Assembly: GCA_943367575.1 (NCBI GenBank)
Contig: CALRJR020000009.1
Coordinates: forward strand, 2,369 to 66,368
Source of the DNA: Prosthecochloris vibrioformis
Lineage (GTDB): Bacteria; Pseudomonadota; Alphaproteobacteria; Sphingomonadales; Sphingomonadaceae
Direction: 5' to 3'
DNA: 64,000 nt
A model generated the notes under the pieces. It worked only from the letters and a program-made list of their open reading frames with translations. It did not search any database and was not told the origin of the DNA. How positions within the stretch are numbered: position 1 is the first letter of the stretch; every line of letters starts with the position of its first letter. A program made the translations under genes and the position numbers. Below, one piece after another: positions 7,913 through 31,374 of this stretch.

Positions 7913-8607
7913 GCGGCGCTGTCCGAAACGATGTGCCCGTCGCGCATCGTCAGCACGCGGTCACACCGGCTGGCGAGAGCCGGGTCATGGGTGATGATCA
8001 GCAAGGTCGCCCCCGCCGCGCGCTGGCGGTCGAACAACAGGTCGACGATCACGCCGCTGGTCGTGCCATCGAGATTGCCGGTCGGTTCGTCGGCGAAGAT
8101 GATTTCGGGCCGCCCCGCCACCGCGCGCGCGATGGCGACGCGCTGTTGCTCGCCGCCCGACAGCTGCACCGGATAATGGGTCAGACGATGGCCCAGGCCA
8201 ACCGCCTCCAGCTCCGCCGCAGCGCGCGCAAAGGCATCGTCCGCGCCCGCCAGCTCCAGCGGCACCGCGACATTTTCCAGCGCGGTCATCGTGGGCAACA
8301 GGTGGAACGCCTGCAGCACGATGCCGACCCGTCCGCGCCGTGCGCGCGCCAGACCGTCCTCGTCCAGCGTGTCATAGGCGATTCCGGCGACGCTCACGCT
8401 GCCGCCGCTCGCCTGTTCGAGGCCCGACAGGATGGCCATCAGCGACGACTTGCCCGATCCCGACGGACCGAGGATCGCAACGCTGCTCCCGCGCGCGATT
8501 TCGACATCGATTCCCTTCAGAATTTCGGTCGGCGCTTCGCGCGTTCCAAGCGTCAGGGTGACATTGCGCGCGCGGATTGCGATATCCGCCACCGGTTCGA
8601 TCGACAT
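7909..8607 (-). CDS. ybbA: ABC transporter ATP-binding protein (YbbA type)
   Basis: It has Walker A GPSGSGKSS, ABC signature LSGGEQQRVAIARA and Walker B IIFADEPTGNLD. The ATG at 8607 was verified. Confidence 0.92.
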   Translation of the reverse strand: MSIEPVADIAIRARNVTLTLGTREAPTEILKGIDVEIARGSSVAILGPSGSGKSSLMAILSGLEQASGGSVSVAGIAYDTLDEDGLARARRGRVGIVLQAFHLLPTMTALENVAVPLELAGADDAFARAAAELEAVGLGHRLTHYPVQLSGGEQQRVAIARAVAGRPEIIFADEPTGNLDGTTSGVIVDLLFDRQRAAGATLLIITHDPALASRCDRVLTMRDGHIVSDSAA

Positions 8608-8615
8608 AGGTGGAG

Positions 8616-9344
8616 ATGACGTCCTTGATCAGAAAGCTTGCCCCATATGCGGGCGCGGTGCTCCTCCTCCAAGGGCTGAGCGCCTGTTCGGGTGAAAATG
8701 ATGCCGCGAACCAGTCGCTCGCGACCCCGGCGACCCCCGCGGCAGTAGCTAGTGCGGGGGCGGAGAAGGCCGACGCGCGGCTGGTCGTCGCCTTCGGGGA
8801 CAGCCTCTACGCCGGCTATGGCGTGTTGCCGCAGGAGAGTTTCCCTGCGCAGCTGGAAAAGGCTCTGGCAGCGCGCGGGATCCCCGCGAGCGTGCGCAAT
8901 GCCGGAGTCTCGGGCGACACCAGCTCGGCGGGCCTGCGCCGCCTGGCCTTCACGCTCGACGGGCTGGATCGCAAGCCGGACCTCGTCATGGTCAATCTGG
9001 GCGGGAACGACATGCTGCGCGGGATCGATCCGGCGGAGACGCGCGCGAACCTGACCGCGATCTGCGAGGAGCTGAAGAAGCGCGGCATCCCGATCATGCT
9101 GACCGGCATGATCGCCGCGCCGAACATGGGGCGCGACTATGCCGATGCGTTCAACGCGATCTATGGCGATCTGGCCAAGCGCTATGACGCGGTGCTCTAC
9201 CCGTTCTTCCTCGATCAGGTGGTGACCGATCAGACGCTGATGCTGCCCGATCGTATTCATCCCAATCCGCAGGGTCTGACGAAGATCGTCGGACGGGTGA
9301 CGCCGTTGGTGGCAGAGGCGCTGAAGCCGGGCAAGGCGGGCTAG
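8616..9344 (+). CDS. tesA: SGNH arylesterase / acyl-CoA thioesterase I-like lipoprotein
   Basis: ORF 8610..9344 opens with GTG, and the first ATG is at 8616. LLQGLSAC is lipobox-like. The SGNH blocks FGDSLYAGYG, GGNDMLRG and DRIHPN are present. Confidence 0.88.
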   Translation: MTSLIRKLAPYAGAVLLLQGLSACSGENDAANQSLATPATPAAVASAGAEKADARLVVAFGDSLYAGYGVLPQESFPAQLEKALAARGIPASVRNAGVSGDTSSAGLRRLAFTLDGLDRKPDLVMVNLGGNDMLRGIDPAETRANLTAICEELKKRGIPIMLTGMIAAPNMGRDYADAFNAIYGDLAKRYDAVLYPFFLDQVVTDQTLMLPDRIHPNPQGLTKIVGRVTPLVAEALKPGKAG

Positions 9345-9392: not shown

Positions 9393-9404
9393 GCAATCGA
9401 TTGC
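9393..9404. promoter_or_regulatory. LacI-type operator palindrome, copy 1 (GCAATCGATTGC)
   Basis: This is a perfect 12-bp palindrome with a central CG. It is intergenic, about 95 nt upstream of ATG 9500. It is one of five related copies in the window. Confidence 0.6.
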
Positions 9405-9499
9405 ATAAAGCGGTCGCCGGGCGGGGAGAGGAATGCTGAACATGCGTGTGCATGCCGATCTGCCGCCGTCTGTCCTCGGTTCCAACGGGATGTCTTGCC

Positions 9500-10843
9500 A
9501 TGAAGATTGAGCTTCGCGCGGCCTGTGCCGCCACCCTGTTCTGCGTCGCCCTGCCCGCTTCGGCCCAGGCGCTCAAAGTGGGCGCGGCCAAGGTGGACAT
9601 CACCCCCAAGGCGGCGGAAATGCCCAAGAACATGCTCGGCGTGCTCGATCCGCTCAACGTGCGCGCGATCGTGGTCGATGACGGCAAGACACGCGCGGCG
9701 ATGGTGACGGTCGATGCCGGCGCGATCATGACCGAGACTTGGGCCAATGTCGCCGCGCGGGTCGAGCGCGAGCTCAAGATCCCGACCAGCCAGCTGCTGC
9801 TGACCGCCAGCCATACGCACAGCGCGCCATGGATGCGTGGCCCGGCGTACGAGGCGCAGATTTTTGACGCGATCCGCAAGGCGGCGGCGGCGGCCAAGCC
9901 CGCGCGCATGGCCTATGGCACCGGTGTTTCCTACATCAACGTCAACCGCAACATCATCGACCCCGACAACCGCCGCTGGTGGGAAGGTCCGAATTATGAG
10001 GGCGTGTCGGACAAGACCGTCGCGGTGGTGCGCTTCGAGACGCTGGAGGGCGCGCCGATCGCGGTCTATTTCAACTATGGCGTGCATGCCGTGCTGACCG
10101 GCAATCTCGATCTGGTCAGCGCCGACCTGCCGGGTGCCGCGTCCAACTATATCGAGCAATCGCTGGGCGGTGACGCGGTCGCGGTCTATGGAAACGGCGC
10201 GGCGGGCGACCAGAACCCGATCTATTTCAACCAGACCTATGAACTGCGCGCGATCCGCACTGCGGACTATGCCAAGCGCGGTGAGGATATCAGCAACGCC
10301 ATGCCCCCCGGCGGGACCGGCATGGACCGCAGCAATCCGCGCGTCGCGATGCTGATGGAACAGCAGAAGCAGATGGTGAAATCGATGGGCCAGATGCTGG
10401 GCGAGGAGGTGCTGCACGTCAGCCGCGCCAGCCTGGAGCGTCCGGTCGCCGCCGCAACCATTCAGGGCGCGCAGACCAGCGTCACCTGCCCCGGCCGCAA
10501 GCGGCTGGACAAGGGCCGCGCAGGCTATCCCGGCACCTACGAGGACGCGGACCCGATCAGCATCCGACTGAGCCTGCTCAAGATCGGCGACACGGTGATC
10601 GGCGGCGTGGATGCAGAGGTGTTCACGACCATCGCCCAGCGCTTCAAGCGCGAATCGCCGTTCAAGCACACGATGATGACGACCATCACCAACGGCATGG
10701 CGCCGTCGGGCTATATCCCGAACGACGCGGCGTTCGCCTACAACACGTTCGAGGTCGTGTCGTCGCGACTGAAGCCGGGCTGCGCCGAAAGCGCGATCGT
10801 CAACGGGCTGCTCGACCTGATCGACAAGGTCGACGCGAAGTGA
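9500..10843 (+). CDS. exported hydrolase related to the neutral/alkaline (non-lysosomal) ceramidase N-terminal domain
   Basis: ORF 9446..10843. ATG 9500 gives a signal-like MKIELRAACAATLFCVALPASAQA. The blocks LKVGAAKVDITP and LLLTASHTHSAPW are typical of this family as I recall it. Confidence 0.72.
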   Translation: MKIELRAACAATLFCVALPASAQALKVGAAKVDITPKAAEMPKNMLGVLDPLNVRAIVVDDGKTRAAMVTVDAGAIMTETWANVAARVERELKIPTSQLLLTASHTHSAPWMRGPAYEAQIFDAIRKAAAAAKPARMAYGTGVSYINVNRNIIDPDNRRWWEGPNYEGVSDKTVAVVRFETLEGAPIAVYFNYGVHAVLTGNLDLVSADLPGAASNYIEQSLGGDAVAVYGNGAAGDQNPIYFNQTYELRAIRTADYAKRGEDISNAMPPGGTGMDRSNPRVAMLMEQQKQMVKSMGQMLGEEVLHVSRASLERPVAAATIQGAQTSVTCPGRKRLDKGRAGYPGTYEDADPISIRLSLLKIGDTVIGGVDAEVFTTIAQRFKRESPFKHTMMTTITNGMAPSGYIPNDAAFAYNTFEVVSSRLKPGCAESAIVNGLLDLIDKVDAK

Positions 10844-10864
10844 GGCGACGGGCCGCGTCGCCTC
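10842..10864. terminator. shared hairpin between convergent genes (GAGGCGACG / CGTCGCCTC)
   Basis: It has an 8-9 bp perfect GC-rich stem and a 5-nt loop, and it overlaps both stop codons (TGA 10841-10843 and TCA 10863-10865). There is no T tract. Confidence 0.4.
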
Positions 10865-11747
10865 AGCGCGACGCGGCCTGTGCCAGTGCGATGGCGCCGA
10901 GCGGGCCGGCGTCGCTGCCAAGACCTGCGGGCTGGATGATCTCGCACACCGCCACAGGGGTGAGGAAGGGTAGATAGCTCGCGAGTTGCGCGACGACGAT
11001 CTCGCGCACCCAGGGCAGGATGAAGGCGCGTGATAGTGCCACGCTTCCACCGAACAGGATGCGTCGCGCCGACGTCGTCAGCAGGATCGCGCAGCACAAT
11101 TCGGCGATATCGGCCGCGACATGGTGCCAGATAGGGTGGTCATCGGGTGCCGTGGCCGGGTCCATGCCGAAGCGTGCAGCGAGCGCTGGCCCCGACACCA
11201 GCCCCTCGATGCAATCGCCATGAAAGGGGCAGTTGCCGGCAAAGGCGTCACCCGGCACGCGCCGCAGCCGGAGATGGCCGATCTCCGGGTGCATCGCTCC
11301 GTGGACGGGCTGTCCGCCGATCAGCACTCCGCCGCCCAGCCCCGTGCCGATCGTCAGATAGCACAGGCTGTCGCAGCCGATCGCCGCGCCCCAGCGATAT
11401 TCGGCGAGCGCCGCGCCATTGACGTCGGTGTCGATCGCCATTGGGCAGGCCAGCCCCTCGCTCAGCAGCGCCGCGACCGGCGCGCCGGTCCAGCCGGGCT
11501 TGGGCGTCGCTAGGATTTGCCCGAACTTCGGATCACGCGGGTCGAGCTGGACCGGGCCGAAGCTGGCGATGCCGAGGCCCGCGAGCGGCGCGCTGGCCGC
11601 CCATCCGTCGAGGATCGCGCGCAATGCGGTCAGCGTCGCAACCGGCTCACCGGTCGCGATGCTGTGCCGTTCGACGATCGCATCGCCCTGCGCCAGCACC
11701 GCAATCGCCTTGGTCCCGCCCAGTTCGATCCCGGCATAGCGGTTCAT
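10863..11747 (-). CDS. ROK-family fructokinase
   Basis: It starts MNRYAGIELGGTKAI (N-terminal ATP-binding block) and has a Cys/His-rich CPFHGDCIEG region as in the ROK zinc site. ATG 11747 overlaps the GH68 stop (ATGA). Confidence 0.82.
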   Translation of the reverse strand: MNRYAGIELGGTKAIAVLAQGDAIVERHSIATGEPVATLTALRAILDGWAASAPLAGLGIASFGPVQLDPRDPKFGQILATPKPGWTGAPVAALLSEGLACPMAIDTDVNGAALAEYRWGAAIGCDSLCYLTIGTGLGGGVLIGGQPVHGAMHPEIGHLRLRRVPGDAFAGNCPFHGDCIEGLVSGPALAARFGMDPATAPDDHPIWHHVAADIAELCCAILLTTSARRILFGGSVALSRAFILPWVREIVVAQLASYLPFLTPVAVCEIIQPAGLGSDAGPLGAIALAQAASR

Positions 11748-12910
11748 CCATTCATCTCCAGCCCAGCCGCATCCCCCTGCAACCGCAAGCGCAACATCGG
11801 CGCGAAGGTGGCGCCGAAGCGGCGGGCATTCGCGTCGTTGCCATCACTCCCCCACGCGTCGATGAAACTCGTCACCTGAAGATCGGGCAGGACCAGCCAG
11901 CTATAGGCCTGTTTCGGCGCGGCGTCAGGGTTGGCGAACACCAGGCCGGTGCCGTTAAGCGGACGCCAGCCGCCATCGATCCGGTCGGAGACCATGCCGT
12001 ACAGCCCGGTCGGGCCGGTCGGACCGTCGGGATTGAAGACATGCCGTTGGGTCGACCAGAACAGATAATAGAGCCCGCCGTGCATCACGACGTGCGGCCG
12101 CTCCAGCTCATTGTTGAGCATATCCGCGCTGACCAGCGGCGGGCGGATGTCCCATTCCGCCAGCGTGTCATCGCGCGCGCTTGCCCAGCCGACGCAGCCG
12201 TTGAAGGCGGAGGCAGAGCCCGCGAGCGAGGCAGCGAAGAAGACATGATGCCGCCCGTCGTGCGGGTCGCGGAAATAGGCCGGGTCGCGGAAGGCCTTGA
12301 TCGTGCCGACCGCACCGCTGCCAGCATCGCTTGCCATGTAATGCGCGGGATCGCGGATCACGAATTCGCGCAGGTCACGCCAGTCGGTGAGGCGATAGCC
12401 GCCCTCGTCAGCCAGGGTCGCATCCGCGCGGAACAGGCGCTGCTCGAAGGTCAGCGCTGCCTCGCCGCGCCGTCCCGTGGCGGTAAAGAACAAGGTCAGC
12501 GTGCGGCGGTCGTCTGCAAGCAGCGCAGAGCCGGACCATTCGCGGCTGCCCGGCGCAAAGCCGTCGGGCATGGCCGGGCCGAGCGGGTGCCAGCCCGCAG
12601 CGTCGCGCAGGATCAGGTGGATGCGGGCATGGCCATGCCGCGTATCGGGGTCGGGAAAGCGCGGCGCGCCCAGCGCCATCCACAAAGTCTGCCCGTCGCG
12701 CAACGCGGAGGGCGTGCCATCCGCATCCTGCACCGGCCACGCGTCCCAGATGTCGAGATCCGGCGCGATGCGGAGCACATCATCGTCCAGGATCAGCGGC
12801 GCGCTGTCATGGCGAGATCCGGCGAGTGCACGGATCTGCGCGGGGGTCCAGGACGCCGTCGCCGCCTGCTCCGCCGCGACGATCGCCGGCGACTGTTCGA
12901 TCGCGCTCAT
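11744..12910 (-). CDS. glycoside hydrolase family 68 (levansucrase / sucrose hydrolase-like), no signal peptide
   Basis: ORF 11744..12973 opens with TTG, and I use ATG 12910 (MSAIEQ). The blocks IWDAWPVQDADG, REWSGSALL, FRDPAYFRDP, ELERPHVVMHGGLYYLF, TGPTGLYGMVS and QAYSWLVLPDLQVTSFID align block for block with Pseudomonas syringae Lsc as I recall it. Confidence 0.85.
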   Translation of the reverse strand: MSAIEQSPAIVAAEQAATASWTPAQIRALAGSRHDSAPLILDDDVLRIAPDLDIWDAWPVQDADGTPSALRDGQTLWMALGAPRFPDPDTRHGHARIHLILRDAAGWHPLGPAMPDGFAPGSREWSGSALLADDRRTLTLFFTATGRRGEAALTFEQRLFRADATLADEGGYRLTDWRDLREFVIRDPAHYMASDAGSGAVGTIKAFRDPAYFRDPHDGRHHVFFAASLAGSASAFNGCVGWASARDDTLAEWDIRPPLVSADMLNNELERPHVVMHGGLYYLFWSTQRHVFNPDGPTGPTGLYGMVSDRIDGGWRPLNGTGLVFANPDAAPKQAYSWLVLPDLQVTSFIDAWGSDGNDANARRFGATFAPMLRLRLQGDAAGLEMNG

Positions 12911-13052
12911 CGGGCGACCACTCCGACAGGCGCCAGCAGATCCGCGGCACATCCGGTCAGCCCATTTCGGCAATACGCATCAACTCGCCGGATCAATTCG
13001 CTCTTCCTTCCTCGGGCCTAGGCGACTTCCTTGCCGACTTCGCAAGGGTTTC

Positions 13053-13064
13053 GCAATCGATTGT
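13053..13064. promoter_or_regulatory. LacI-type operator palindrome, copy 2 (GCAATCGATTGT, 11/12)
   Basis: It lies in the divergent intergenic region between the GH68 gene (start 12910, minus) and the esterase gene (start 13137/13164, plus). Confidence 0.5.
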
Positions 13065-13163
13065 GAATACAGCTTGAAATCTGTCGCGCGACGCGCTTCT
13101 ATCAAAGTAGCCGGGAGCGCCGACGCGCCGCCCGGGATGGGAAGATGCACGGTGACGATTGAG

Positions 13164-14126
13164 ATGATGGGACGGCGCGGATTTCTGGTCGGGGCGACAG
13201 GCCTCGCGGTGCTTGGCGCAGCAGCGAGCAGTGCAGCGCAATTCCCCAAGCTCCCGCCGATGCCGCGCGCATGGATCGATGCCGAACAAATCCCGCTCTG
13301 GCCCAACGGCACCCCCGGCGGCGGCTACACCGCCCGCGCGGTCCCCGCCGACTGGCCCGACATCATGGTCCGCAACATCGAGAAGCCGATGCTGCGCGTG
13401 TTCCGTCCGGAGAAGTCGAACGGCCGCGCGTTGCTGTCGATCCCGGGCGGCGCCTACACCTTCGTGTCGATCCTCAACGAAGGCGTCGATGTCGCCCGCG
13501 CGATGACCGCGCGCGGCTACACGGTGTTCGTGCTCACCTATCGCCTGCCTGACGAAGGCTGGGCGAACCGCGAAGATGTGCCGCTGCAGGATGCGCAGCG
13601 CGCAATCCGCGTGATCCGCGCCAATGCCGGACGCTACGGGTTCGACCCGGCCAAGGTCGCGGCGGTCGGATTTTCCGCAGGCGGCCATCTCGGCGCGACG
13701 CTGGCGACCGGCTTTGCCGAGCCGGTCTATGCGCCCCGTGACGCGACCGACGCGCTCGATGCCCGGCCCGCGGCAATGGCGCTGATCTATCCCGTGATCA
13801 GCGTCACCGCGCCGGTGACGCATGGTGAGTCCGCAATGCGGCTGCTGGGCAATGCGCCCTCCGCCACCTTGATCGCGAAGCGCTCCCCGGCGCAGCATGT
13901 CAGCGCGCAAACGCCGCCCATTTTCCTCGTCCACGCGCTCGACGACAAAGCGGTTCCGGCCGAGAACAGCATGATCATGCTGCGCGCGCTGCAGGCCGCG
14001 AGCCGCCCGGTCGAGCTGCATCTGTTCGAAGCGGGCAATCACGGCTTTGGCGTCGGGCGGCCCGATACGCCGGCGGGGCAGTGGCCCGCTCTGTTCGCCG
14101 CCTGGCTCGACCGGCATCTGAGCTAG
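13164..14126 (+). CDS. exported (Tat-like signal) alpha/beta-hydrolase esterase, BD-FAE type
   Basis: It is the 3' part of ORF 12477..14126, with in-frame ATGs at 13137, 13164 and 13167. MMGRRGFLVGATGLAVLGAAASSAAQ is twin-arginine-like. It has the blocks IPGGAYTF, GFSAGGH, and DDKAVP...GNHGF. It is a paralogue of 4459..5376. Confidence 0.8.
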   Translation: MMGRRGFLVGATGLAVLGAAASSAAQFPKLPPMPRAWIDAEQIPLWPNGTPGGGYTARAVPADWPDIMVRNIEKPMLRVFRPEKSNGRALLSIPGGAYTFVSILNEGVDVARAMTARGYTVFVLTYRLPDEGWANREDVPLQDAQRAIRVIRANAGRYGFDPAKVAAVGFSAGGHLGATLATGFAEPVYAPRDATDALDARPAAMALIYPVISVTAPVTHGESAMRLLGNAPSATLIAKRSPAQHVSAQTPPIFLVHALDDKAVPAENSMIMLRALQAASRPVELHLFEAGNHGFGVGRPDTPAGQWPALFAAWLDRHLS

Positions 14127-15352
14127 GCGCGGTAATCGTCGGCGTCGCGCTGCGCGAGCAGCGCGGCGAACGGCGCGCGCGACTTGTTCCAGCCGCACAG
14201 CAGCGCCAGCAGCGTCGCGAATACGCCGCCGAGCAGGATCGCATAGCTGCTGTCCGCCAGCCATTCGCCCAGCGCGCCCATCGCCAGCGGCGCCAGCACG
14301 GCGCTAAGACAGGTGAAGAACAGGAGCAGTCCGGCGATCGACCCGTGCCGCCCCTTGTCGTAGCAGCTGATCCCAGTCGAATTGATCGTCGGATACAGCA
14401 CCGACATGAACAGCCCGGTGGCGGGCAGCGCGAAGATCGCGACCTCCCGCCCGCCCAGCACTGCGATCCAGAACAGCGCCGCCATCGCCGCGCTGCACAC
14501 GAAAATCACGCTCGCCCAGTCGAACCGCGAGAGCAGCCACACGCCCAGGAACCGCCCCACCGCGCGCAGCACGAATAAGATCGACACGACATAGGCCGCC
14601 AGCCACAGCCACGACCCCGAATACTCGGCCAGATAGGTCGGCGCCCAGACATAGATCGCCGCCTCTGCCCCGACATACAGCATCAGCGCGGTGCCAAAAA
14701 AGCGCGCGGGCGGATCGCCCGCCATGCGGATCGCCTCGCTCGCACGGACCGGTTCGGTGCGGGTGACGATCGGGCGCGGGAAGCGCGCCACCGCCGACCC
14801 CAGCACCAACAGCGCGCACAGCATCGCCGCGATGATATACACCCATTTCCAGCTCGCGCCCTGCGTCAGCATATAGGTGACGATCGCCGGCCCGATGATC
14901 GCGCCGACCCCGAAAAACCCCTCGATCAGGTTCATCGTCCGCGCATGCTCCCCGGTCGAGCGCGACAGGTCACCGATCAGCGCCAATGCGCCGGACTTGA
15001 AGATTCCGATGCCGATGCCGGAGACAAACAACAGGCTGGTGAAGAACAGGAAATCATGCCCGGCCGCGAACAGCGCCGAGCTGACGCCGAACAGGATCAG
15101 GCCGATCAGGATCGTCGCCTTGCGCCCGATCCGGTCGGCCAGGAAGCCGAGGGCGATCGCGGAGATGCCGATCCCGGCCATCGTCGCGTACTGGAACGAT
15201 CCACCGGCGGTCAGGCCCAGCTGAAACTCGCGGATCACTTCGGGAATGACCGTGCCGACCGAGTCCGTGGTCATCGCGAACATCGCGAACATCAGGAACA
15301 CCAGTGCCTTGAGCAGCGTCGCCGCGCCGTCCCGTCCCGCCTGATCGTTCAT
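14123..15352 (-). CDS. MFS sugar transporter (FucP/GluP-like subfamily)
   Basis: ORF 14123..15364 opens with TTG, while ATG 15352 has GGAGAG 4 nt upstream. It is multi-TM and carries the D-R-x-G-R-K loop motif LADRIGRK. Its stop shares the palindrome CTAG with the convergent esterase stop. Confidence 0.85.
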   Translation of the reverse strand: MNDQAGRDGAATLLKALVFLMFAMFAMTTDSVGTVIPEVIREFQLGLTAGGSFQYATMAGIGISAIALGFLADRIGRKATILIGLILFGVSSALFAAGHDFLFFTSLLFVSGIGIGIFKSGALALIGDLSRSTGEHARTMNLIEGFFGVGAIIGPAIVTYMLTQGASWKWVYIIAAMLCALLVLGSAVARFPRPIVTRTEPVRASEAIRMAGDPPARFFGTALMLYVGAEAAIYVWAPTYLAEYSGSWLWLAAYVVSILFVLRAVGRFLGVWLLSRFDWASVIFVCSAAMAALFWIAVLGGREVAIFALPATGLFMSVLYPTINSTGISCYDKGRHGSIAGLLLFFTCLSAVLAPLAMGALGEWLADSSYAILLGGVFATLLALLCGWNKSRAPFAALLAQRDADDYRA

Positions 15353-15393
15353 CCCGCTCTCCAATCAATCATCGTTCGCGCCGAGAGAACGGA

Positions 15394-15424
15394 AAGGGCG
15401 GGAGGCGCATAGCCCCCCGCCCTT
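15394..15424 (-). terminator. hairpin between the TBDR and the downstream MFS gene (AAGGGCGGG ... CCCGCCCTT)
   Basis: It has a perfect 9-bp stem and a 13-nt loop. On the sense (minus) strand it is followed by TTCCGTTCTCTC, a weak U tract. Confidence 0.4.
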
Positions 15425-15443
15425 CCCGCATGTCCGATTCCGG

Positions 15444-17540
15444 TCAGGGCGTGACCCGGAAACGAAGGCCGATCGTGCGCGGGGTCGGACCCGATCCCGA
15501 CAACGGGCCATTGGTGCCGACAAAGGTCGGCCCACGCTCGTCCGTCAGGTTGTTGCCGATCAGGGCCAGCTCGTAATCGCCGTATCGCACGCCCAGGGTC
15601 AGGGCCATCACGTTGTAGGACGGCGCGGTGATACCGTTGCCCTGCAAGCGATCACCGCTGTGGCTAAGCGACAGGTTGCCGAACAGGTTCACGCCGCTCG
15701 CGATCTCGCCATTATAACCCGCATCGACGCGGAAGTTGTTCGACAGCGTGTTGGTTAGGCGCGCGCCGGGCCGCAACAGCGGCTGCGCCGCCGCGACGAT
15801 CGGATTGACGCGGGTATATTTGCTGTCGTTGAAGTTGCCGACAAAGCCCAGGTTGAACCCCTTGAGCGGGGTATTCCAACGCAGTTCGAGATCGACGCCC
15901 TTGGTCTTCGCGTCACCGAAATTGGCAAAGCCATTGACGTTGGCAATCGACCCGGTGACCGATGTCTGCAGGTTGGTATATTCGAGCTGATAGAGGTTGA
16001 GGCCGATATTCACCGACCGGTCGGCGCTACGCCATTTGACGCCAAACTCGTAGTTGGTCGACGATTCCGGCTCGAGCGTCACGCCCGTCGGCACGCCCGC
16101 GCCAGTCACCGACTGAACCTGCACCCGCGACTGCACGATGCCGGGACGGAAGCCGGTCGCCGCCGAGATGAACATCGTCAGATCGTCGGTCGGCAGATAG
16201 GACAGGTTGACGCGCCAGGTGGTCACGTCCTTCGTGGTCGGGAGCGTCTCGGTCGCGTCGGCAAAGGCGCGATCGTCATGATATTGGCGCAATCCCACCA
16301 GCGGGACCAGCTTGCCGTCGAACAGTTCGTAGCTGACCTCGCCGAAGAACGCGTAATTCTCCGTCAGCGTGTCATTGTCGGCGTTGATGAGGACCCCCGG
16401 AAGGGTCAGCGTATTCTCCTGCGGGCCCGACCCGTTCTGGTAGGACGCACCGACCAGCCATTTGAACGGCCCGCTGCCGTTTGAATTCAAACGCAATTCC
16501 TGAGCGAACATGCTCGGCAGGAACTGGCTCGAGAAGGAGCCGGCGGGCGAAAGCGGGATGTTGATCCCGAATACGCCGTCGAGCTGGCTGGTCGCGCTGG
16601 TGATCGAGAAGGCGTCGAAATCCACCGTTGCGGTCAGGCTATACAGCGTGAAGTCGCCGTTCGAGAAGCCGTCCTGCCCGGCGGTGTTCTGGAAATAGGG
16701 CGGATTGACCGATGCGGTGAAGCCGGTGAAGCCCTGACGCGGGCGGAACTTCCAATATTGCGCGCGGATGTTGACGTTGTCGGCCGGGCGGAACAGCGCG
16801 ACGACGCGGATATCGTCATTCTTGGCTACGTTGACGCCGGTCTCGTCGGGGGTGCCGTCGAACGCACCATAATAGGCATCGGCCCAGCCCGCATCGCGGG
16901 AGAAGCCGCCGCTGACGCGCACCGCCAGCATGTCCTTGACGATCGGCACGGAGATCGCGCCGGCCACGCCATAGTTGAGGCCGTCCGCGCCGCGGGTCTG
17001 CGATGCCTCCGCCTCGAACGCATAGTCGAAATCCTTGAGGTTCGGATCGCGCGTGCGGAAGATGAATACGCCGCCCGACGAGCCCTGCCCATAGAGCGTG
17101 CCCTGCGGCCCGCGCAGCACTTCGACGCGGTCGATGTCGAGGAAGCGCACCGGCGGCGCGATGCCGAAATTGGTGACGATGAACGGCGCATCGTCGAGAT
17201 AATAGCCGATCGGCGAGTCGCCATTCTGCGTCACGCTGCCGCGCAGATTGTAGAAGCGTGAACCGTTGGACTGGCGGAACCCCTCAAACGCGCCCGGCAC
17301 GCTCGATACCAGGTCGCCGATCGTGCTGATATTGCGTTCCTTCAGCTCCTCGCCGTCGAACGCCTGGATGGCGAGAGGCACTTCCTGCAGCGCCTGCGCG
17401 CCGCCCTTTTGCGCGGTCACGACGACCTCATCGGTCGCGGATTCCTGCGCGGTGGTGGCTTCGCTCTGCGCAAATGCCGGGGCCGCCCCCAGACCACTAA
17501 CGACCGCAATGGCCGCGACTGACGTACAGAAACGCTTCAT
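15444..17540 (-). CDS. TonB-dependent receptor
   Basis: It is 698 aa. MKRFCTSVAAIAVVSGLGAAPAFA is signal-like and DEVVVTAQK is TonB-box-like. It has plug blocks (IEVLRGPQGTLYGQGSSGG) and a long beta-barrel-type sequence. Confidence 0.92.
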   Translation of the reverse strand: MKRFCTSVAAIAVVSGLGAAPAFAQSEATTAQESATDEVVVTAQKGGAQALQEVPLAIQAFDGEELKERNISTIGDLVSSVPGAFEGFRQSNGSRFYNLRGSVTQNGDSPIGYYLDDAPFIVTNFGIAPPVRFLDIDRVEVLRGPQGTLYGQGSSGGVFIFRTRDPNLKDFDYAFEAEASQTRGADGLNYGVAGAISVPIVKDMLAVRVSGGFSRDAGWADAYYGAFDGTPDETGVNVAKNDDIRVVALFRPADNVNIRAQYWKFRPRQGFTGFTASVNPPYFQNTAGQDGFSNGDFTLYSLTATVDFDAFSITSATSQLDGVFGINIPLSPAGSFSSQFLPSMFAQELRLNSNGSGPFKWLVGASYQNGSGPQENTLTLPGVLINADNDTLTENYAFFGEVSYELFDGKLVPLVGLRQYHDDRAFADATETLPTTKDVTTWRVNLSYLPTDDLTMFISAATGFRPGIVQSRVQVQSVTGAGVPTGVTLEPESSTNYEFGVKWRSADRSVNIGLNLYQLEYTNLQTSVTGSIANVNGFANFGDAKTKGVDLELRWNTPLKGFNLGFVGNFNDSKYTRVNPIVAAAQPLLRPGARLTNTLSNNFRVDAGYNGEIASGVNLFGNLSLSHSGDRLQGNGITAPSYNVMALTLGVRYGDYELALIGNNLTDERGPTFVGTNGPLSGSGPTPRTIGLRFRVTP

Positions 17541-17561
17541 TGTCCTCTCCCCGGATTTTTT

Positions 17562-17573
17562 TCAATCGATTGC
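17562..17573. promoter_or_regulatory. LacI-type operator palindrome, copy 3 (TCAATCGATTGC, 11/12)
   Basis: It is 22 nt upstream of the TBDR ATG (17540) and immediately downstream of the predicted -10 element. Confidence 0.55.
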
Positions 17574-17580
17574 ATAAATT

Positions 17581-17609
17581 GGCATAAATGGGCCGAAATC
17601 CATCGTCAA
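17581..17609 (-). promoter_or_regulatory. sigma70-like promoter for the TBDR (-35 TTGACG, 17-nt spacer, -10 TATGCC)
   Basis: The reverse complement reads ttcTTGACGatggatttcggcccattTATGCCaatttatgCAATCGATTGa. A second TATGCA lies 10 nt further downstream. Confidence 0.45.
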
Positions 17610-17643
17610 GAATCGCCCCGACCCCAGGCGATACCGACGCCCC

Positions 17644-18729
17644 TTATTGCGATGGACGCGCAAAGGCGCGGCGCAGCGCCTCGATCCTCGCGCGCGTGAA
17701 CTGCTTGGCTTGCGGCGAGTCCGCCGACAACTGATCGAACCCATGATAGGCGCCGGGAATGACCTGCAACTCGGTCGGCACCCCTGCTTCGTTCAACCGC
17801 CGGGCATAGTCGATATCCTCGCTGACGAAGAGATCGACCCCGCCAACCTGAATGAAGGCAGGCGGCAACCCGGCCAGGTTCGGCGTCCGGGCCGGCACGG
17901 CGCGCGCGGGCACCTTATCGGTGCCGGGTGCCTGCCCCAGAAACGCCTTCCAGCCATATTGGTTTTCGGACGCGCTCCACCCGACCGTGGCGATATGGCC
18001 GGGCAGCTTCACCGCGCCGCCGGTGCGATCGTCGAGCATCGGATAGACCAGGGCCTGAAACGCGATCGGGATTTCGCCGCGGTCGCGCGCGGTGATCGCC
18101 AGCAGTGCGGCATGCCCGCCGCCCGCGCTCTCGCCCGTCACCGCGATGCGGCTGCGGTCGAGACCCAGCTCCGCCGCGCTCTGATACATCCAGCGCAGCC
18201 CGGCATAATTGTCCTCGATCGATCCCTCGAACGTCGTCTCCGGCGCCAGGCGGTATTCGACGCTGACGATCACCGCATCGAGCTCGCGCGCCATCTCCTG
18301 CAGGCGGCGCACATCGGTTGCCGCGGTGCCGAGGATATAGCCACCGCCATGGGTGTGGAGGATGCCGGGACGACTGGTTCCCGCCTTGGCGTTGATGACG
18401 AACAGCTTGACCTGCGGCGCGCCGGCCGGGCCGGGGATCATCTTCTCCACCACCGGGATATCGGCGTGGCGCGGAGGCACCGGCGGCCCGCCGCCGCGCT
18501 TGCGCGACGCGAGCACCATCGCTTCGTCGATGGTCCCCATCATCTTCGAAAAGCCGATCGCCATGCGTGCGCCCGCACGCAGTTCCGGCGCGATCGGGGT
18601 CAGCTTCGCCTCGTCCTCGGCGGTCAGTTGTGGTGGCGGAGGCGGACCCTGCTGCGCCAAGGCAGCAACGGGAACGGTCGCGACGCTGAGCAAAGCGGCT
18701 CCACAGACGATGGAAATCCTCGCGCGCAT
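17644..18729 (-). CDS. exported alpha/beta-hydrolase carboxylesterase, family IV (HSL-like)
   Basis: ORF 17644..18732 opens with GTG, while ATG 18729 has GGGAGAG 4 nt upstream. MRARISIVCGAALLSVATVPVAALA is signal-like. It has the HGGG-type oxyanion block HTHGGGYILG and the nucleophile elbow GESAGG. Confidence 0.88.
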   Translation of the reverse strand: MRARISIVCGAALLSVATVPVAALAQQGPPPPPQLTAEDEAKLTPIAPELRAGARMAIGFSKMMGTIDEAMVLASRKRGGGPPVPPRHADIPVVEKMIPGPAGAPQVKLFVINAKAGTSRPGILHTHGGGYILGTAATDVRRLQEMARELDAVIVSVEYRLAPETTFEGSIEDNYAGLRWMYQSAAELGLDRSRIAVTGESAGGGHAALLAITARDRGEIPIAFQALVYPMLDDRTGGAVKLPGHIATVGWSASENQYGWKAFLGQAPGTDKVPARAVPARTPNLAGLPPAFIQVGGVDLFVSEDIDYARRLNEAGVPTELQVIPGAYHGFDQLSADSPQAKQFTRARIEALRRAFARPSQ

Positions 18730-18778
18730 CACACTCTCCCAACCACTTATCGTTCGGACTCGGGTCCGTTATGGCGAC

Positions 18779-18806
18779 ATCCTATTAGCAATCGATTGCA
18801 AGTCAA
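18779..18806 (-). promoter_or_regulatory. sigma70-like promoter for the esterase, with the operator in the spacer (-35 TTGACT, 16-nt spacer, -10 TAGGAT)
   Basis: The reverse complement reads gtggagTTGACTtGCAATCGATTGCtaaTAGGATgtcgcc. Confidence 0.45.
18788..18799. promoter_or_regulatory. LacI-type operator palindrome, copy 4 (GCAATCGATTGC)
   Basis: This is a perfect 12-mer that lies exactly between the predicted -35 and -10 of the esterase promoter, 44 nt downstream of the LacI gene stop. Confidence 0.6.
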
Positions 18807-18842
18807 CTCCACCAAAGTCGTAGATCGCGTGACGCTTGGGGC

Positions 18843-19865
18843 TCAGCTGGACTCGCGGACGATCAGTTCGGGGGTGAGGATCGTCGATCCGGTCGCCTCG
18901 CCCGCGATCCGCTTCATCAGACTATCGACCAGATGCGCGGCGCCGGCGGCAAGGTTCTGACGCACCGTCGACAGTGGCGGCGCACTGGTGCGCGCGAGGT
19001 AGAGGTCGTCATAGCCGATCACCCTGACGTCCCCCGGCACCGACAGGCCGCGCGTCGCCAGCACCTGAATCGCGGTCAGCGCGATCAGGTCGGACGCGGC
19101 GAAGATGCCGTCGGGCAGGATGTCGGACTGGTCGAGAAACGCGTCGATATCCGATCCGCTGACTTCCGAATCGAAATGGGTCGTCGCATCGACCAGCCGG
19201 ATCCCGTCCTGCGCGGCGATCGCCGCCTTGGCCCCTTCAAGGCGCAAGGACGGCTCGATCGCCTGGGTGTTGCCGAGGAACGCGATCTTGCGGCATCCGC
19301 GGTCGATCAGATGTTGGGTCGCGAGCCGCCCGCCAAGGAAATTGTCGGTGCCGACCGAACAATGGATCTGTCCCTGCACGAACCCGCCCCAGGCGACGAG
19401 CGGCAGATAGTCGGCGGCGGTGCGATCGAGCACCTGCGACTGATCTGACTGGCCGACGATGATGAAGCCATCGACGCGGTCGGCATCAATCAGCCGCGCC
19501 AGCCAATTGTCCTGATTGGGAATGACGCGCGACAGCATCAGGTCGAACCCGCGCTCGCTCAGTTCGTCGGCGAGATAACCGATCAACGTCATAAAGAACG
19601 GGTCGGACAGATGCTGCCCGCGATCATGGCCGAGCGGCACCACCACGCCGATCGCCCCGCGCTGCTTGGTGCGCAAATTTCGCGCGAGCGCGCTGGGACG
19701 AAAATCGTGCGTCTCGGCCAGTTTGCGGATGCGTTCGGAGGTCTTGGAATTGACCATCGTCTTGCCCGCCAGCGCGCGCGACACGGTCGCGGCCGACACA
19801 CCGGCCAGTTCGGCAAGGTCGTAGATGGTCTTGATCTTGCGCGCCAAATTCCGCCTCCGCCTCAC
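18843..19865 (-). CDS. LacI/GalR-family transcriptional regulator
   Basis: It has the HTH block IYDLAELAGVSAATVSRAL followed by a periplasmic-binding-protein-like sugar-binding core. The ORF opens with GTG 19865. A TTG at 19847 preceded by GGAGGCGG would give MARKIKTIYDLA, a more typical N-terminus. Confidence 0.9.
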   Translation of the reverse strand: MRRRRNLARKIKTIYDLAELAGVSAATVSRALAGKTMVNSKTSERIRKLAETHDFRPSALARNLRTKQRGAIGVVVPLGHDRGQHLSDPFFMTLIGYLADELSERGFDLMLSRVIPNQDNWLARLIDADRVDGFIIVGQSDQSQVLDRTAADYLPLVAWGGFVQGQIHCSVGTDNFLGGRLATQHLIDRGCRKIAFLGNTQAIEPSLRLEGAKAAIAAQDGIRLVDATTHFDSEVSGSDIDAFLDQSDILPDGIFAASDLIALTAIQVLATRGLSVPGDVRVIGYDDLYLARTSAPPLSTVRQNLAAGAAHLVDSLMKRIAGEATGSTILTPELIVRESS

Positions 19866-19925
19866 GCAGCCAAGGGGATAGGGTCGCGCCGCGTCCTTTG
19901 CAACAAGCCCGTCCCCGGTTGCAGG

Positions 19926-21227
19926 CTAGTTGCGCCGGAACCGGGCGAGGTCGATCGCGCGCGCCATTGCGGCATTGCCCGCGTCATTGGGGTGGACGTT
20001 GTCGCCGGGATCATAGGCCGGGTTGAGCCGCGTCGGACGCGCCGGATCGCGCAGCACCGCGTCGAAATCGACCAGCGCATCGAACTTGCCGCTTGTCCGG
20101 ATCCACTGGTTCACGGCTTGACGCAGCGCCTCGGTCTTCGCGCTATACAGCCATGTCCCCTCGGTCGGGGCGATGGTGGCGCCCATCACCTTGATCCCGT
20201 GCAGATGCGCGCGATCGATGAATTGAGAATAGGCCGCGATCAGGTCCTCGGCGGTGACCGCCTCGCTCGCCGGAATCCCGGGGATCGCCGCGAAATTGAT
20301 GTCGTTGATCCCTTCCAGCAGGATCACCCAGCGCACGCCGGGCCGCGCCAGCACATCGCGATCGAACCGGGCGAGCGCCGACAGCCCCGCCCCGTCGCGC
20401 CGCACGCGGTTGCCCGAAATTCCCATGTTGATGACCGACAGGTGCTGCGTGCGCGCATCTCCCTGCAACCGCTCGGCCAGCAGATCCGGCCACGCCCGCC
20501 CCGTGTCCGGGCTCGTGCCATAGCCGTCAGTGATCGAATCGCCGAAGGCGACGATCGTGCCAGCCTTCGTATCCGCCTGAACCGCCAGCCCGCTCAGCCA
20601 GAAATAGGACCGGTTGGTCTCGGCGTCGGGCAGCGCGGCATCGCCGGTGCGCTGTCCCTTTGCGACATAGGTGGTGCGTAGCCCCAGCGGGTGCAGCGTG
20701 TTCACCGCGACGTCTTCAGGAAGATGAATCGACACCGCGAGCAGCTCCAGTGCAGCGACATCGAGCGTCACCGGATCGCTGAACACCACCGCGCCCGGCT
20801 GGATCGTGACACCCGCCTGACCGGCAAAGCTGAGCGCCCGCGACGTATCCGCGCGGATCGCCCCAGCTTCGGCGCTCTTGGCAATCGCCGCGCGGCCGAT
20901 GCGGAGCGGCTCCCCGCCGCTCGCATTGGAGAATTGCACCCGCCACACGCTGCCTTTGACGGTCGGGCGGACGACCATGCGCACGGTCTGATCCTTCAGC
21001 CGTTCCGGCGTCGGCAGGATCGGCGAGGGCGTTGCGGGCGGCAGCGGCGCGGGCCGCGTCTCCCCCGCCGGGCGCGGCGGCAGGCGCGGCGGCGGCATCG
21101 GCGCGAGCTGTTGCGCGGTGCCCCATGCGCTGATCCAGCGATCCTCCGCTTGCGCCACCGGCGACAGGATCAATGCGACCGCGCCGCACAGCACGATCCA
21201 TCCGCGCATGATTGCCCCGTTTTTCAC
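19926..21227 (-). CDS. exported SGNH/GDSL hydrolase with an N-terminal beta-rich domain
   Basis: The GTG start at 21227 has GGGAGGGG 4 nt upstream (alternative ATG at 21209). The signal-like N-terminus ends at AQA. It has the SGNH blocks FGDSITDGYG, GISGNR, GINDI and DNVHPN, plus a Pro-rich linker near the N-terminus. Confidence 0.85.
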   Translation of the reverse strand: MKNGAIMRGWIVLCGAVALILSPVAQAEDRWISAWGTAQQLAPMPPPRLPPRPAGETRPAPLPPATPSPILPTPERLKDQTVRMVVRPTVKGSVWRVQFSNASGGEPLRIGRAAIAKSAEAGAIRADTSRALSFAGQAGVTIQPGAVVFSDPVTLDVAALELLAVSIHLPEDVAVNTLHPLGLRTTYVAKGQRTGDAALPDAETNRSYFWLSGLAVQADTKAGTIVAFGDSITDGYGTSPDTGRAWPDLLAERLQGDARTQHLSVINMGISGNRVRRDGAGLSALARFDRDVLARPGVRWVILLEGINDINFAAIPGIPASEAVTAEDLIAAYSQFIDRAHLHGIKVMGATIAPTEGTWLYSAKTEALRQAVNQWIRTSGKFDALVDFDAVLRDPARPTRLNPAYDPGDNVHPNDAGNAAMARAIDLARFRRN

Positions 21228-21265
21228 CGAACCCCTCCCGCGTCATGCCAGGCGACCGAACGCCT

Positions 21266-21277
21266 GCAATCGATTGC
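21266..21277. promoter_or_regulatory. LacI-type operator palindrome, copy 5 (GCAATCGATTGC)
   Basis: This is a perfect 12-mer in the divergent region between the SGNH hydrolase (start 21227, minus) and the protease (start 21355, plus). Confidence 0.55.
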
Positions 21278-21354: not shown

Positions 21355-22584
21355 ATGCGCCTGATCCCGACCTTCCTGCTCCTGCTCGCATGGTGCGCGC
21401 TACCGCCGTCCGCGGCAGCGCAACCCGCGCAGACCCGCGCCGAAGCACTGGCACAGGACGCGGCCGAATATGCCCGAGCCTATGGCGTGCCGGAGCCAGA
21501 GGCGAAGCGCCGCCTGATCGCGCAGCAGGACAGCGTGCCCGCAATCGACGCCATCGCCGATCGCTATCGCGACCGCCTCGCCGGCATCTCGGTCCAGCAT
21601 CGTCCCGACTATCGCTTCGTCGTCTATCTCACCGGCGATCGCCCGGTCCCGCCCACTGAGGTGCTGACCGGGTCGACGCGCGTCCCCGTCCAGTTCCGCA
21701 CCGGCGCCAAGGCCAGTCGCGAGCGGGTGCTGTGGGCGCTTACCAACCACCAGCCGGCGATCCGCGCGGCGCTCGCCGACACGCCATCGATGGGCATCGA
21801 TCCGCGCACCGGCGAGCTGGTCGTGATCGCCGCCAAGTCCGTGGTCGACCGCGCCGGGGGCAAGGCCACGCTCGACGCCCGGCTGACGCAGCTGACCGGC
21901 GTGCCGGTGCAGGTGCGCATGATCGATCAGGTCGATCGCAATCTGGGTCCTCAGGGCGGCGGGCGGCTCGACGGCACCGATCCGGCGAGCGGACGGCGCT
22001 ATCGCTGCACCAGCGGCTTTCTGGTCGGCGACGGCACGCGCACCGGCGTGACCACCGCCGCACATTGTCTGGATGACCTGGCCTATATCGATCCGGCGCG
22101 CCAGGCGACGCCGCTCGGCTTTGTCGGGCAATGGGGCTGGGGCTATCACGATGTCCAGATCCACACCGTCCCAACCGCCGCGCGCCCGCGGTTCTTCGCC
22201 GACACGGCGCGGACGCTAGCCCGCCCGGTCGAGGCGCAGCGCGCCAAGACCAGCACCCGCGCCGGGGATTTCGTGTGTCATCGCGGCGAAAGCACCGGCT
22301 ATAGCTGCGCCGAAGTGGCGTTGCTCGACTTCGCACCGTCCGGCCAGCTGTGCGGCGGTTACTGCCTGCCGACCTGGGTCGCTGTGTCCGGCCCGACCTG
22401 TAAACAGGGCGACAGTGGCGGCCCGGTGTTCAGCGGCACCACCGCATTCGGCATCGTCAAGGGCGCCGCATTCCGGCCCGACGGCTCCTGCGCGCTCTAT
22501 TTCTATATGTCGCTCGATTACCTGCCGACGCCCTGGCGCCTGCTGACCGAAGCCGCGCCAGCGCCGCCGGTCGCACAGGAATAG
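21355..22584 (+). CDS. secreted S1-family serine protease with a long pro-region (alpha-lytic protease / streptogrisin-like)
   Basis: The N-terminus MRLIPTFLLLLAWCALPPSAAA is signal-like and is followed by a pro-region of about 190 aa. The catalytic blocks are TAAHC (His), HDVQI (Asp candidate) and GDSGGPV (Ser). Confidence 0.85.
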   Translation: MRLIPTFLLLLAWCALPPSAAAQPAQTRAEALAQDAAEYARAYGVPEPEAKRRLIAQQDSVPAIDAIADRYRDRLAGISVQHRPDYRFVVYLTGDRPVPPTEVLTGSTRVPVQFRTGAKASRERVLWALTNHQPAIRAALADTPSMGIDPRTGELVVIAAKSVVDRAGGKATLDARLTQLTGVPVQVRMIDQVDRNLGPQGGGRLDGTDPASGRRYRCTSGFLVGDGTRTGVTTAAHCLDDLAYIDPARQATPLGFVGQWGWGYHDVQIHTVPTAARPRFFADTARTLARPVEAQRAKTSTRAGDFVCHRGESTGYSCAEVALLDFAPSGQLCGGYCLPTWVAVSGPTCKQGDSGGPVFSGTTAFGIVKGAAFRPDGSCALYFYMSLDYLPTPWRLLTEAAPAPPVAQE

Positions 22585-31344: not shown

Positions 31345-31374
31345 GCCCATAGCGGCAAGCGATTGCGACTGACG

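Follow-up and report, generated by a model that had tools for sequence, protein, structure and literature searches.

The 64 kb stretch of contig CALRJR020000009.1 analyzed here (hereafter the window; 66% G+C), from an assembly deposited as Prosthecochloris vibrioformis and placed in the family Sphingomonadaceae, carries a group of putative sucrose utilization genes interspersed with genes for exported hydrolases (Table 1). The gene map is based on the third-position G+C content and on Pfam and NCBIfam searches. The core of the group encodes a glycoside hydrolase family 68 (GH68) fructosyl-hydrolase, a fructokinase, a TonB-dependent receptor and a major facilitator superfamily (MFS) transporter. 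The exported hydrolases are three esterase-family proteins and one ceramidase-like protein. Between these genes lie five copies of a 12-nucleotide (nt) palindrome, GCAATCGATTGC, and among the copies lies a gene for a LacI-family regulator. As judged from sequence comparison, the palindromes are very likely to be the operators of a repressor encoded by this gene.

Table 1. Genes, predicted operators and promoter-like element of the window, and further operator-bearing genes of related loci (L numbers, with positions within the respective locus)
Feature	Position	Strand	Remarks
YbbA/YbbP-like ATP-binding cassette (ABC) transporter (ATPase + FtsX/MacB-type permease)	5393-8607	-	
TesA-like SGNH lipoprotein	8610-9344	+	
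Predicted operator 1	9393..9404		exact; between TesA-like stop (9344) and ceramidase-like start (9446); centre 47 nt upstream of the latter
Exported protein, neutral-ceramidase-like N-terminal domain	9446-10843	+	
ROK fructokinase (ScrK-like)	10863-11747	-	
GH68 levansucrase/invertase-family enzyme	11744-12973	-	start TTG 12973 or, more likely, ATG 12910
Predicted operator 2	13053..13064		one mismatch, GCAATCGATTGT; divergent gap between GH68 start (12973 or 12910) and PaeX-like start (13164)
PaeX-like alpha/beta acetylesterase, twin-arginine signal peptide	13164-14126	+	
MFS transporter (TsgA/FucP-like)	14123-15364	-	
TonB-dependent outer-membrane receptor	15444-17540	-	698 amino acids
Predicted operator 3	17562..17573		one mismatch, TCAATCGATTGC; 22 nt 5' of receptor ATG (17540)
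Exported Abhydrolase_3 esterase, hormone-sensitive-lipase type	17644-18732	-	HGG and GESAG motifs
Promoter-like TTGACT-16-TAGGAT of the Abhydrolase_3 gene	18779..18806	-	operator 4 in spacer
Predicted operator 4	18788..18799		exact; between LacI-family gene stop (18843) and Abhydrolase_3 start (18732)
LacI-family regulator	18843-19865	-	340 amino acids
Exported two-domain SGNH esterase	19926-21227	-	60 nt upstream of LacI-family gene, same strand
Predicted operator 5	21266..21277		exact; divergent gap between SGNH start (21227) and protease-like start (21355); centre 43 nt upstream of SGNH gene
Streptogrisin-like protease	21355-22584	+	
Related loci: cation/acetate symporter ActP	L009, L011, L012, L013, L020		845 bits, above subfamily cutoff; operon with Abhydrolase_3 gene
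Related loci: tannase/feruloyl-esterase family	L014 12375-17228 (two copies), L019 5224-6975, L022 14746-16620, L026 5128-6696		operator-bearing
Related locus: type-B carboxylesterase	L012 6832-8568		operator-bearing
Related locus: beta-lactamase-like hydrolase	L026 13963-15333		operator-bearing

The first-pass annotation, which was made from the sequence alone, had described five copies of the palindrome, three perfect and two with one mismatch, all of them intergenic. A pattern search allowing one mismatch reproduced these coordinates and mismatch counts, and the gene map puts each copy in a gap between genes. Including a sixth match, the observed number of 6 compares with 0.60 expected, and none of 100 dinucleotide-preserving shuffles contained 6 or more. 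When two mismatches were allowed, only scattered and asymmetric matches were added. The first-pass annotation had also seen no further copy in the 64 kb. This holds for the core AATCGATT, which occurs at five places only, but not for the one-mismatch motif: the sixth copy, GCAAGCGATTGC, is located at 31355-31366 and had escaped the scan because its core reads AAGCGATT. It is separated by 10 nt from the preceding stop codon, that of a formamidase-like gene, and by 8 nt from the following ATG, that of a gene for an SBF-like (DUF4137) transporter. The copy is absent from the 93%-identical ortholog, and no site with at most one mismatch occurs in 80 orthologous loci (263 kb). The G that it carries was found at this position in 0 of 161 conserved sites. 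The copy was therefore rejected as a regulon site, being neither conserved nor of a sequence seen in conserved sites, and is probably due to chance.

The gene at 18843-19865 is the only LacI-family gene of the window, as the first-pass annotation had stated. Its product contains an N-terminal LacI helix-turn-helix domain (PF00356, residues 13-58, E-value 2.9e-13, above the gathering score) and a periplasmic-binding-protein-like effector part (PF13377, E-value 6.8e-31, and PF00532), and it can be aligned over its whole length with solved LacI-family structures. For the DNA-binding domain, the best alignment is that with CcpA (SAATVSR versus SMATVSR). The hinge reads ALARNL, compared with AVARGL in CcpA (PSALARNLR versus PNAVARGLA), and the hinge leucine is kept; helix-turn-helix and hinge can also be aligned with those of LacI. 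In LacI-family proteins this leucine inserts at the central CG of the operator. The protein does not have the C-terminal extension that tetramerizes E. coli LacI and is thus likely to be a dimer. It reaches no NCBIfam equivalog cutoff, so that the effector is not readable from the sequence. The palindrome itself has the LacI/GalR operator shape that had been attributed to it: it is an even palindrome of 12-16 nt with an invariant central CG, it is situated upstream of its targets, and the gene next to it encodes the corresponding helix-turn-helix, effector domain and hinge leucine. Even palindromes with a central CG are described for 1173 of 1303 LacI-family factors, and LacI-family operators are mostly found 30-140 nt before the start codon (PMC4052901). 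The operator centres in the window are 28-105 nt away from start codons.

For the comparative analysis, the regulator protein was scanned against one genome per species, and the 80 best loci (1.44 Mb) were collected. They originate mostly from Sphingomonas and also from Caenibius, Altericroceibacterium and Sphingobium, and the identity of their regulators ranges from 100% (Sphingomonas sp. CCH9-E2) down to 51%. The window itself is Sphingomonas DNA. The motif is present at up to two mismatches in 76 of the 80 ortholog loci. At up to one mismatch the set contains 189 sites, whereas 200 palindromes of equal half-site composition gave 1 match in the median and 59 at most. The control palindrome with the 59 matches, CGATCATGATCG, was rejected as a second motif: its matches are mismatched copies at fixed positions in conserved coding sequence, with a single perfect copy. 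A conservative coding mask, which covers 59% of the bases, holds only 19 of the 189 sites (10%). Metagenomic control loci of 263 kb, fetched for an unrelated gene of the window, contain no site at the one-mismatch threshold.

Orthologs of the window proteins were placed by tblastn, and each of the one-mismatch sites was set on the resulting map. The mapped genes contain no such site. The sites are located 25-200 nt 5' of the orthologs of the MFS, GH68, receptor, Abhydrolase_3, PaeX-like, ceramidase-like and SGNH genes. In the rearranged loci L018-L027, in which gene order and orientation differ from the window, the sites still precede the same gene families, which argues against a passive repeat. 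The distant orthologs (51-58% identity) have a simpler locus with a site 54-126 nt upstream of the regulator gene itself, and this is the usual autoregulatory layout. The phylogenetic footprinting that had been proposed with the first-pass annotation is thus strongly positive, with respect to the number of sites, their intergenic bias and their persistence in rearranged loci.

These data bear directly on the view that the repeat has no regulatory role at all and represents a fragment of a repetitive extragenic palindromic (REP) element or a miniature inverted-repeat transposable element (MITE), a restriction-modification target with a ClaI-type ATCGAT core, or mere chance. It is true that ATCGAT is a known restriction site, that short palindromes can be dispersed repeats and that the copy at 31355 looks accidental. 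However, the flanks of the copies show no similarity beyond about 14 nt, and a loopless 12-nt palindrome is unable to fold into a terminator hairpin. The window contains ATCGAT 30 times, genes included, whereas the full motif occurs in promoter gaps only, which is not the pattern of a restriction site. Together with the outcome of the shuffling, the strong intergenic bias and the cross-species conservation within otherwise diverged spacers leave this view a negligible probability; the conservation data effectively refute it.

A second alternative is that the palindrome is bound by another factor, encoded outside the window, and that the LacI-family gene is a co-regulated passenger. The case for binding by the LacI-family protein is made from sequence, and the window is 64 kb of a whole genome. 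Moreover, no operator is located directly 5' of the regulator gene in the window, as the closest site belongs to the SGNH gene that precedes it. Nevertheless, the motif tracks the LacI-family ortholog through 80 genomes and several rearrangements, and in the distant orthologs it stands directly upstream of the regulator gene. Its even, CG-centred form is that of the large majority of LacI-family operators (1173 of 1303, PMC4052901), and the mapped loci contain no other regulator gene with a consistent linkage. Binding by another factor is therefore very unlikely. The assignment to the LacI-family repressor is supported because the motif follows this regulator across 80 genomes, is intergenic and overlaps promoters.

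In 161 distinct related sites the core CAATCGATTG hardly varies, which is partly due to the selection of the sites on this core. The flanks were not selected; they show T in 53% and A in 53% of the sites directly outside the core, a preference that fades over three further positions. This indicates an operator of about 14-16 nt, (t)TGCAATCGATTGCA(a). For the 14-nt flanked consensus TGCAATCGATTGCA of the first-pass annotation, these values give weak support, as do those of the window, where T precedes the palindrome at 2 of 5 sites and A follows it at 3 of 5. Alignments of orthologous promoters have a mean column identity of 43-47%, and the palindrome is their only invariant island.

The palindromes overlap with promoter-like elements. 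The block downstream of the regulator gene reads TTGAC-TTGCAATCGATTGCTAATA in relatives, and the TTGAC of the promoter-like element of the Abhydrolase_3 gene is kept in 12 of 15 aligned relatives. In front of the ceramidase-like gene and the SGNH gene, a -35-like TTGC and a -10-like TTATCA or TAGCGG, respectively, precede the palindrome; operator 1 is located just downstream of the conserved -10-like TTATCA. In this position after the -10-like box, the palindrome would cover the transcription start of both genes. The site positions would thus fit repression by promoter occlusion.

Paired operators are frequent in the relatives. Among 43 pairs within 130 bp, 19 are spaced by 22-24 bp and 13 by 88-93 bp, and the shorter distance matches the peak spacing reported for cooperative LacI-family sites (PMC4052901). 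Pairs of about 90 bp are found in L003 (12260/12352), L007 (12336/12424), L020 (14327/14420) and ten other loci, and further paired operators are located upstream of the regulator or the receptor gene in L029-L079. In many relatives the receptor gene is preceded, at a distance of about 90 nt, by a second, distal operator. The window lacks it, the best candidate there having 5 mismatches, and a GCAAT half-site remnant near 17655 is the only trace of the 90-bp pair in the window and its closest relatives.

We propose the following mechanism. A repressor dimer would bind each (t)TGCAATCGATTGCA(a) site by its helix-turn-helix domains, with the hinge leucines entering the central CG. Sites within the -35/-10 spacer or over the transcription start would block RNA polymerase. 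In this way five promoter regions with six or seven transcription units would be controlled: the ceramidase-like gene; GH68 with fructokinase; the PaeX-like gene; the receptor gene, probably with the MFS gene; the Abhydrolase_3 gene; the SGNH gene, probably with the regulator gene; and possibly the protease-like gene at 21355. The repressor would be released once its effector domain has bound a sugar, most probably sucrose. Binding by this protein, the repressor sign, the dimeric state, sucrose as the inducer and the operon boundaries are all predictions.

The stop codon of the GH68 gene overlaps the start of the fructokinase gene, which places both in one operon. The regulator gene may be co-transcribed with the SGNH gene or may have a weak promoter of its own in the 60-nt gap between them. 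The MFS gene follows the receptor gene at a distance of 79 nt. The gap (15365-15443) contains a GC-rich hairpin (GGGAAGGGCGGG...CCCGCCCTTTCC), which may be an intra-operon attenuator or a transcript-stabilizing element, and no operator, so that control of the MFS gene in this strain rests on read-through. Where the MFS gene stands alone in relatives, it has its own operator.

The locus can be compared with three known systems. The sux locus of Xanthomonas campestris encodes the LacI-type repressor SuxR, which is relieved by sucrose, the TonB-dependent receptor SuxA, the MFS transporter SuxC and the sucrose hydrolase SuxB (PMC1790865, PMC12798719); it has been described in 2007 as partly conserved in sphingomonads (PMC1790865). 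The window likewise has a receptor, an MFS transporter, a sucrose-cleaving enzyme and a LacI-family repressor in one cluster, which is also conserved in relatives. The likeness to SuxR, SuxA and SuxC is one of gene families. The sucrose-cleaving enzyme differs, since SuxB is a GH13 amylosucrase-like protein and the window enzyme belongs to GH68, and the window locus additionally has a ROK fructokinase and four exported hydrolases. RegPrecise lists regulog 5753, "ScrR - Sphingomonadales", with Saro_1880 of Novosphingobium aromaticivorans, 2 regulons and 9 sites (Ravcheev et al. 2014, PMC4052901). It is likewise a computationally inferred LacI-family sucrose regulon of the same order, and the comparison was made by description; the 80 best loci, whose identities are 51% or higher, include none from N. 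aromaticivorans. The third system is CcpA, which has the closest DNA-binding domain alignment. Its cre operator, TGWAANCGNTNWCA, shares a TG-AA-CG-TT-CA skeleton with the palindrome. CcpA is, however, a global regulator of Firmicutes that needs HPr-Ser-P, whereas the protein of the window is a local alphaproteobacterial regulator with sites within 12 kb of its own gene.

Several points weigh against the proposed repressor-operator system or its details. Only 64 kb of the genome were seen; the regulon may be larger, and another regulator of the same specificity could exist. The MFS gene of the window has no operator of its own and is separated from the receptor gene by the hairpin, and the regulator gene may own a promoter in the gap after the SGNH gene. 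In Gram-negative bacteria, export of a GH68 enzyme does not necessarily require a signal peptide. It is therefore uncertain in which compartment sucrose is cleaved and, as a result, which molecule the repressor meets. The effector could thus be fructose or a fructo-oligosaccharide. A literature search found no paper on such a sucrose regulon of Sphingomonas, and the comparison with ScrR of RegPrecise, one close candidate, is by description only.

The products of the regulated genes can be described as follows. The GH68 enzyme (PF02435, E-value 1e-63) has levansucrases as its closest solved relatives, and neither this enzyme nor the ROK kinase has a predicted signal peptide. Sec-type signals are predicted for the ceramidase-like protein, the Abhydrolase_3 esterase and the SGNH esterase, and a twin-arginine (Tat) signal for the PaeX-like esterase. 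The SGNH esterase is a clear homolog of the FjoAcXE-type carbohydrate acetylesterases (E-value 5e-78). This family carries a GNSI motif (PMC9105624), in place of which the window protein has GDSI. The closest relatives of the esterase encoded at 13164 are PaeX, a pectin acetylesterase, and AxeA1, an acetylxylan esterase. In the ceramidase-like protein only the N-terminal half of the neutral-ceramidase model is matched, and a sequence search found no solved-structure relative. Its gene is conserved as a part of the predicted regulon and carries a separate operator in at least 9 genomes.

Two flanking genes were also considered. The protease-like gene at 21355 shares the gap of operator 5 and encodes an exported protein of 409 amino acids with a C-terminal streptogrisin/alpha-lytic-protease-like domain (GDSGGP) and about 200 N-terminal residues without a family match. 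It is linked to the locus in close relatives only and possibly belongs to the regulon. The TesA-like gene was rejected as a member: it is located upstream of the site at 9393, is adjacent in the closest relatives only and pairs with the ABC transporter. The TesA-like gene and the YbbA/YbbP-like transporter genes stand back to back with a 2-nt gap, in the same divergent layout as tesA-ybbA-ybbP of E. coli.

The first-pass annotation had proposed that the motif groups genes which annotation alone would not, and it does tie the esterase-family genes to the sucrose genes. In both clades of relatives, GH68 and a receptor/transporter pair constantly accompany the regulator and the motif, and a fructokinase is often present as well. 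The constancy of GH68 and of the pair suggests sucrose as the substrate, and the analogy with SuxR (PMC1790865) points to sucrose as the inducer. The clade of the window (at least 60% identity) adds the exported hydrolases, each with its own operator. The MFS transporters of this clade and of the plain-sucrose clade have no significant BLASTP match to each other, and the receptors match in the plug domain only. By this comparison, neither protein is orthologous between the clades, and both transporters have been swapped. In the plain-sucrose clade, a gene for a tryptophan-halogenase-like flavoprotein has paired operators upstream (L034 18027-19715; L050 5412-7256), and in L050 it adjoins a gene for a TonB-dependent receptor.

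Further operator-bearing genes of the relatives, from families without a counterpart in the window, were assigned by NCBIfam; this covers the annotated part of the open reading frames of the loci (Table 1). The tannase-type, carboxylesterase and beta-lactamase-like genes are located in operons or divergent pairs that carry the palindrome. They differ from locus to locus, which indicates that the esterase complement of the regulon varies between species. The actP gene sits between the regulator and Abhydrolase_3 genes (11054-14283 in L009, near 11046-14300 in the other four) and is found under the same conserved TTGACT-operator-TAATA promoter in five Sphingomonas genomes. Taken together, the predicted regulon appears to link the catabolism of sucrose with the hydrolysis of esters and, in some species, with the uptake of acetate.

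What the esterases act on can be explained in two ways. The operator may define a previously undescribed pathway for the catabolism of acylated sucrose, such as plant acylsugars and acetylated or phenylpropanoid sucrose esters; we regard this as speculative and, on its own, rather improbable. The ester would enter via the dedicated TonB-dependent receptor and be deacylated in the periplasm by the SGNH, PaeX-like, hormone-sensitive-lipase-type and ceramidase-like enzymes, and in relatives by the tannase/feruloyl-esterase, carboxylesterase and beta-lactamase-like enzymes. The acetate set free would be taken up by operator-controlled ActP in some species, GH68 would cleave the freed sucrose, and the ROK kinase would phosphorylate the fructose. 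This pathway is consistent with the esterase genes keeping their own operators through rearrangements, with the entry of actP and tannase-family genes into the regulon of relatives, with the export signals on all hydrolases and with the swap of both transporters relative to the plain-sucrose clade. Nothing relevant was found in the literature on bacterial acylsugar or acylsucrose catabolism.

Alternatively, the esterases may not act on a sucrose derivative. Sucrose would then be a plant cue, and the enzymes would strip acetyl or feruloyl groups from cell-wall fragments or other esters, with acetate uptake as an independent benefit. The operator and the repressor stay the same in this explanation, which we consider possible though not likely. 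The nearest characterized relatives of the esterases do act on acetyl groups of pectin or xylan (PaeX, AxeA1, FjoAcXE-type), and the tannase/feruloyl-esterase and actP genes that carry the operator in relatives can be accommodated as well. However, the mapped genes of the window and the related loci, which are the annotated part of the open reading frames, include neither a xylan- or pectin-directed glycoside hydrolase nor a gene of xylose or uronate catabolism, and the SGNH enzyme has GDSI and not the GNSI of its family. Furthermore, the Sec, Tat or lipoprotein-type signals fit the periplasm, where only small imported substrates occur. The lack of xylan or pectin glycosidases among the mapped genes and the export signals lean slightly towards the catabolism of acylated sucrose.

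The regulatory device itself is ordinary and follows a textbook mechanism. The value of the finding is in the set of genes that it joins, which suggests that deacylation and the use of sucrose are connected in Sphingomonas in a way not described so far. The operator ties a sucrose core to four exported hydrolases whose role could otherwise not be assigned and gives them a testable physiological context; in sister species an acetate symporter and tannase-type esterases are also tied in. The locus provides a compact and well-conserved operator-repressor pair for a high-GC alphaproteobacterium, and it indicates that one regulator and its motif can persist while both transporters are replaced. For Sphingomonas, a common genus of plant surfaces and water systems, the regulon represents a candidate route to esterified sugars.

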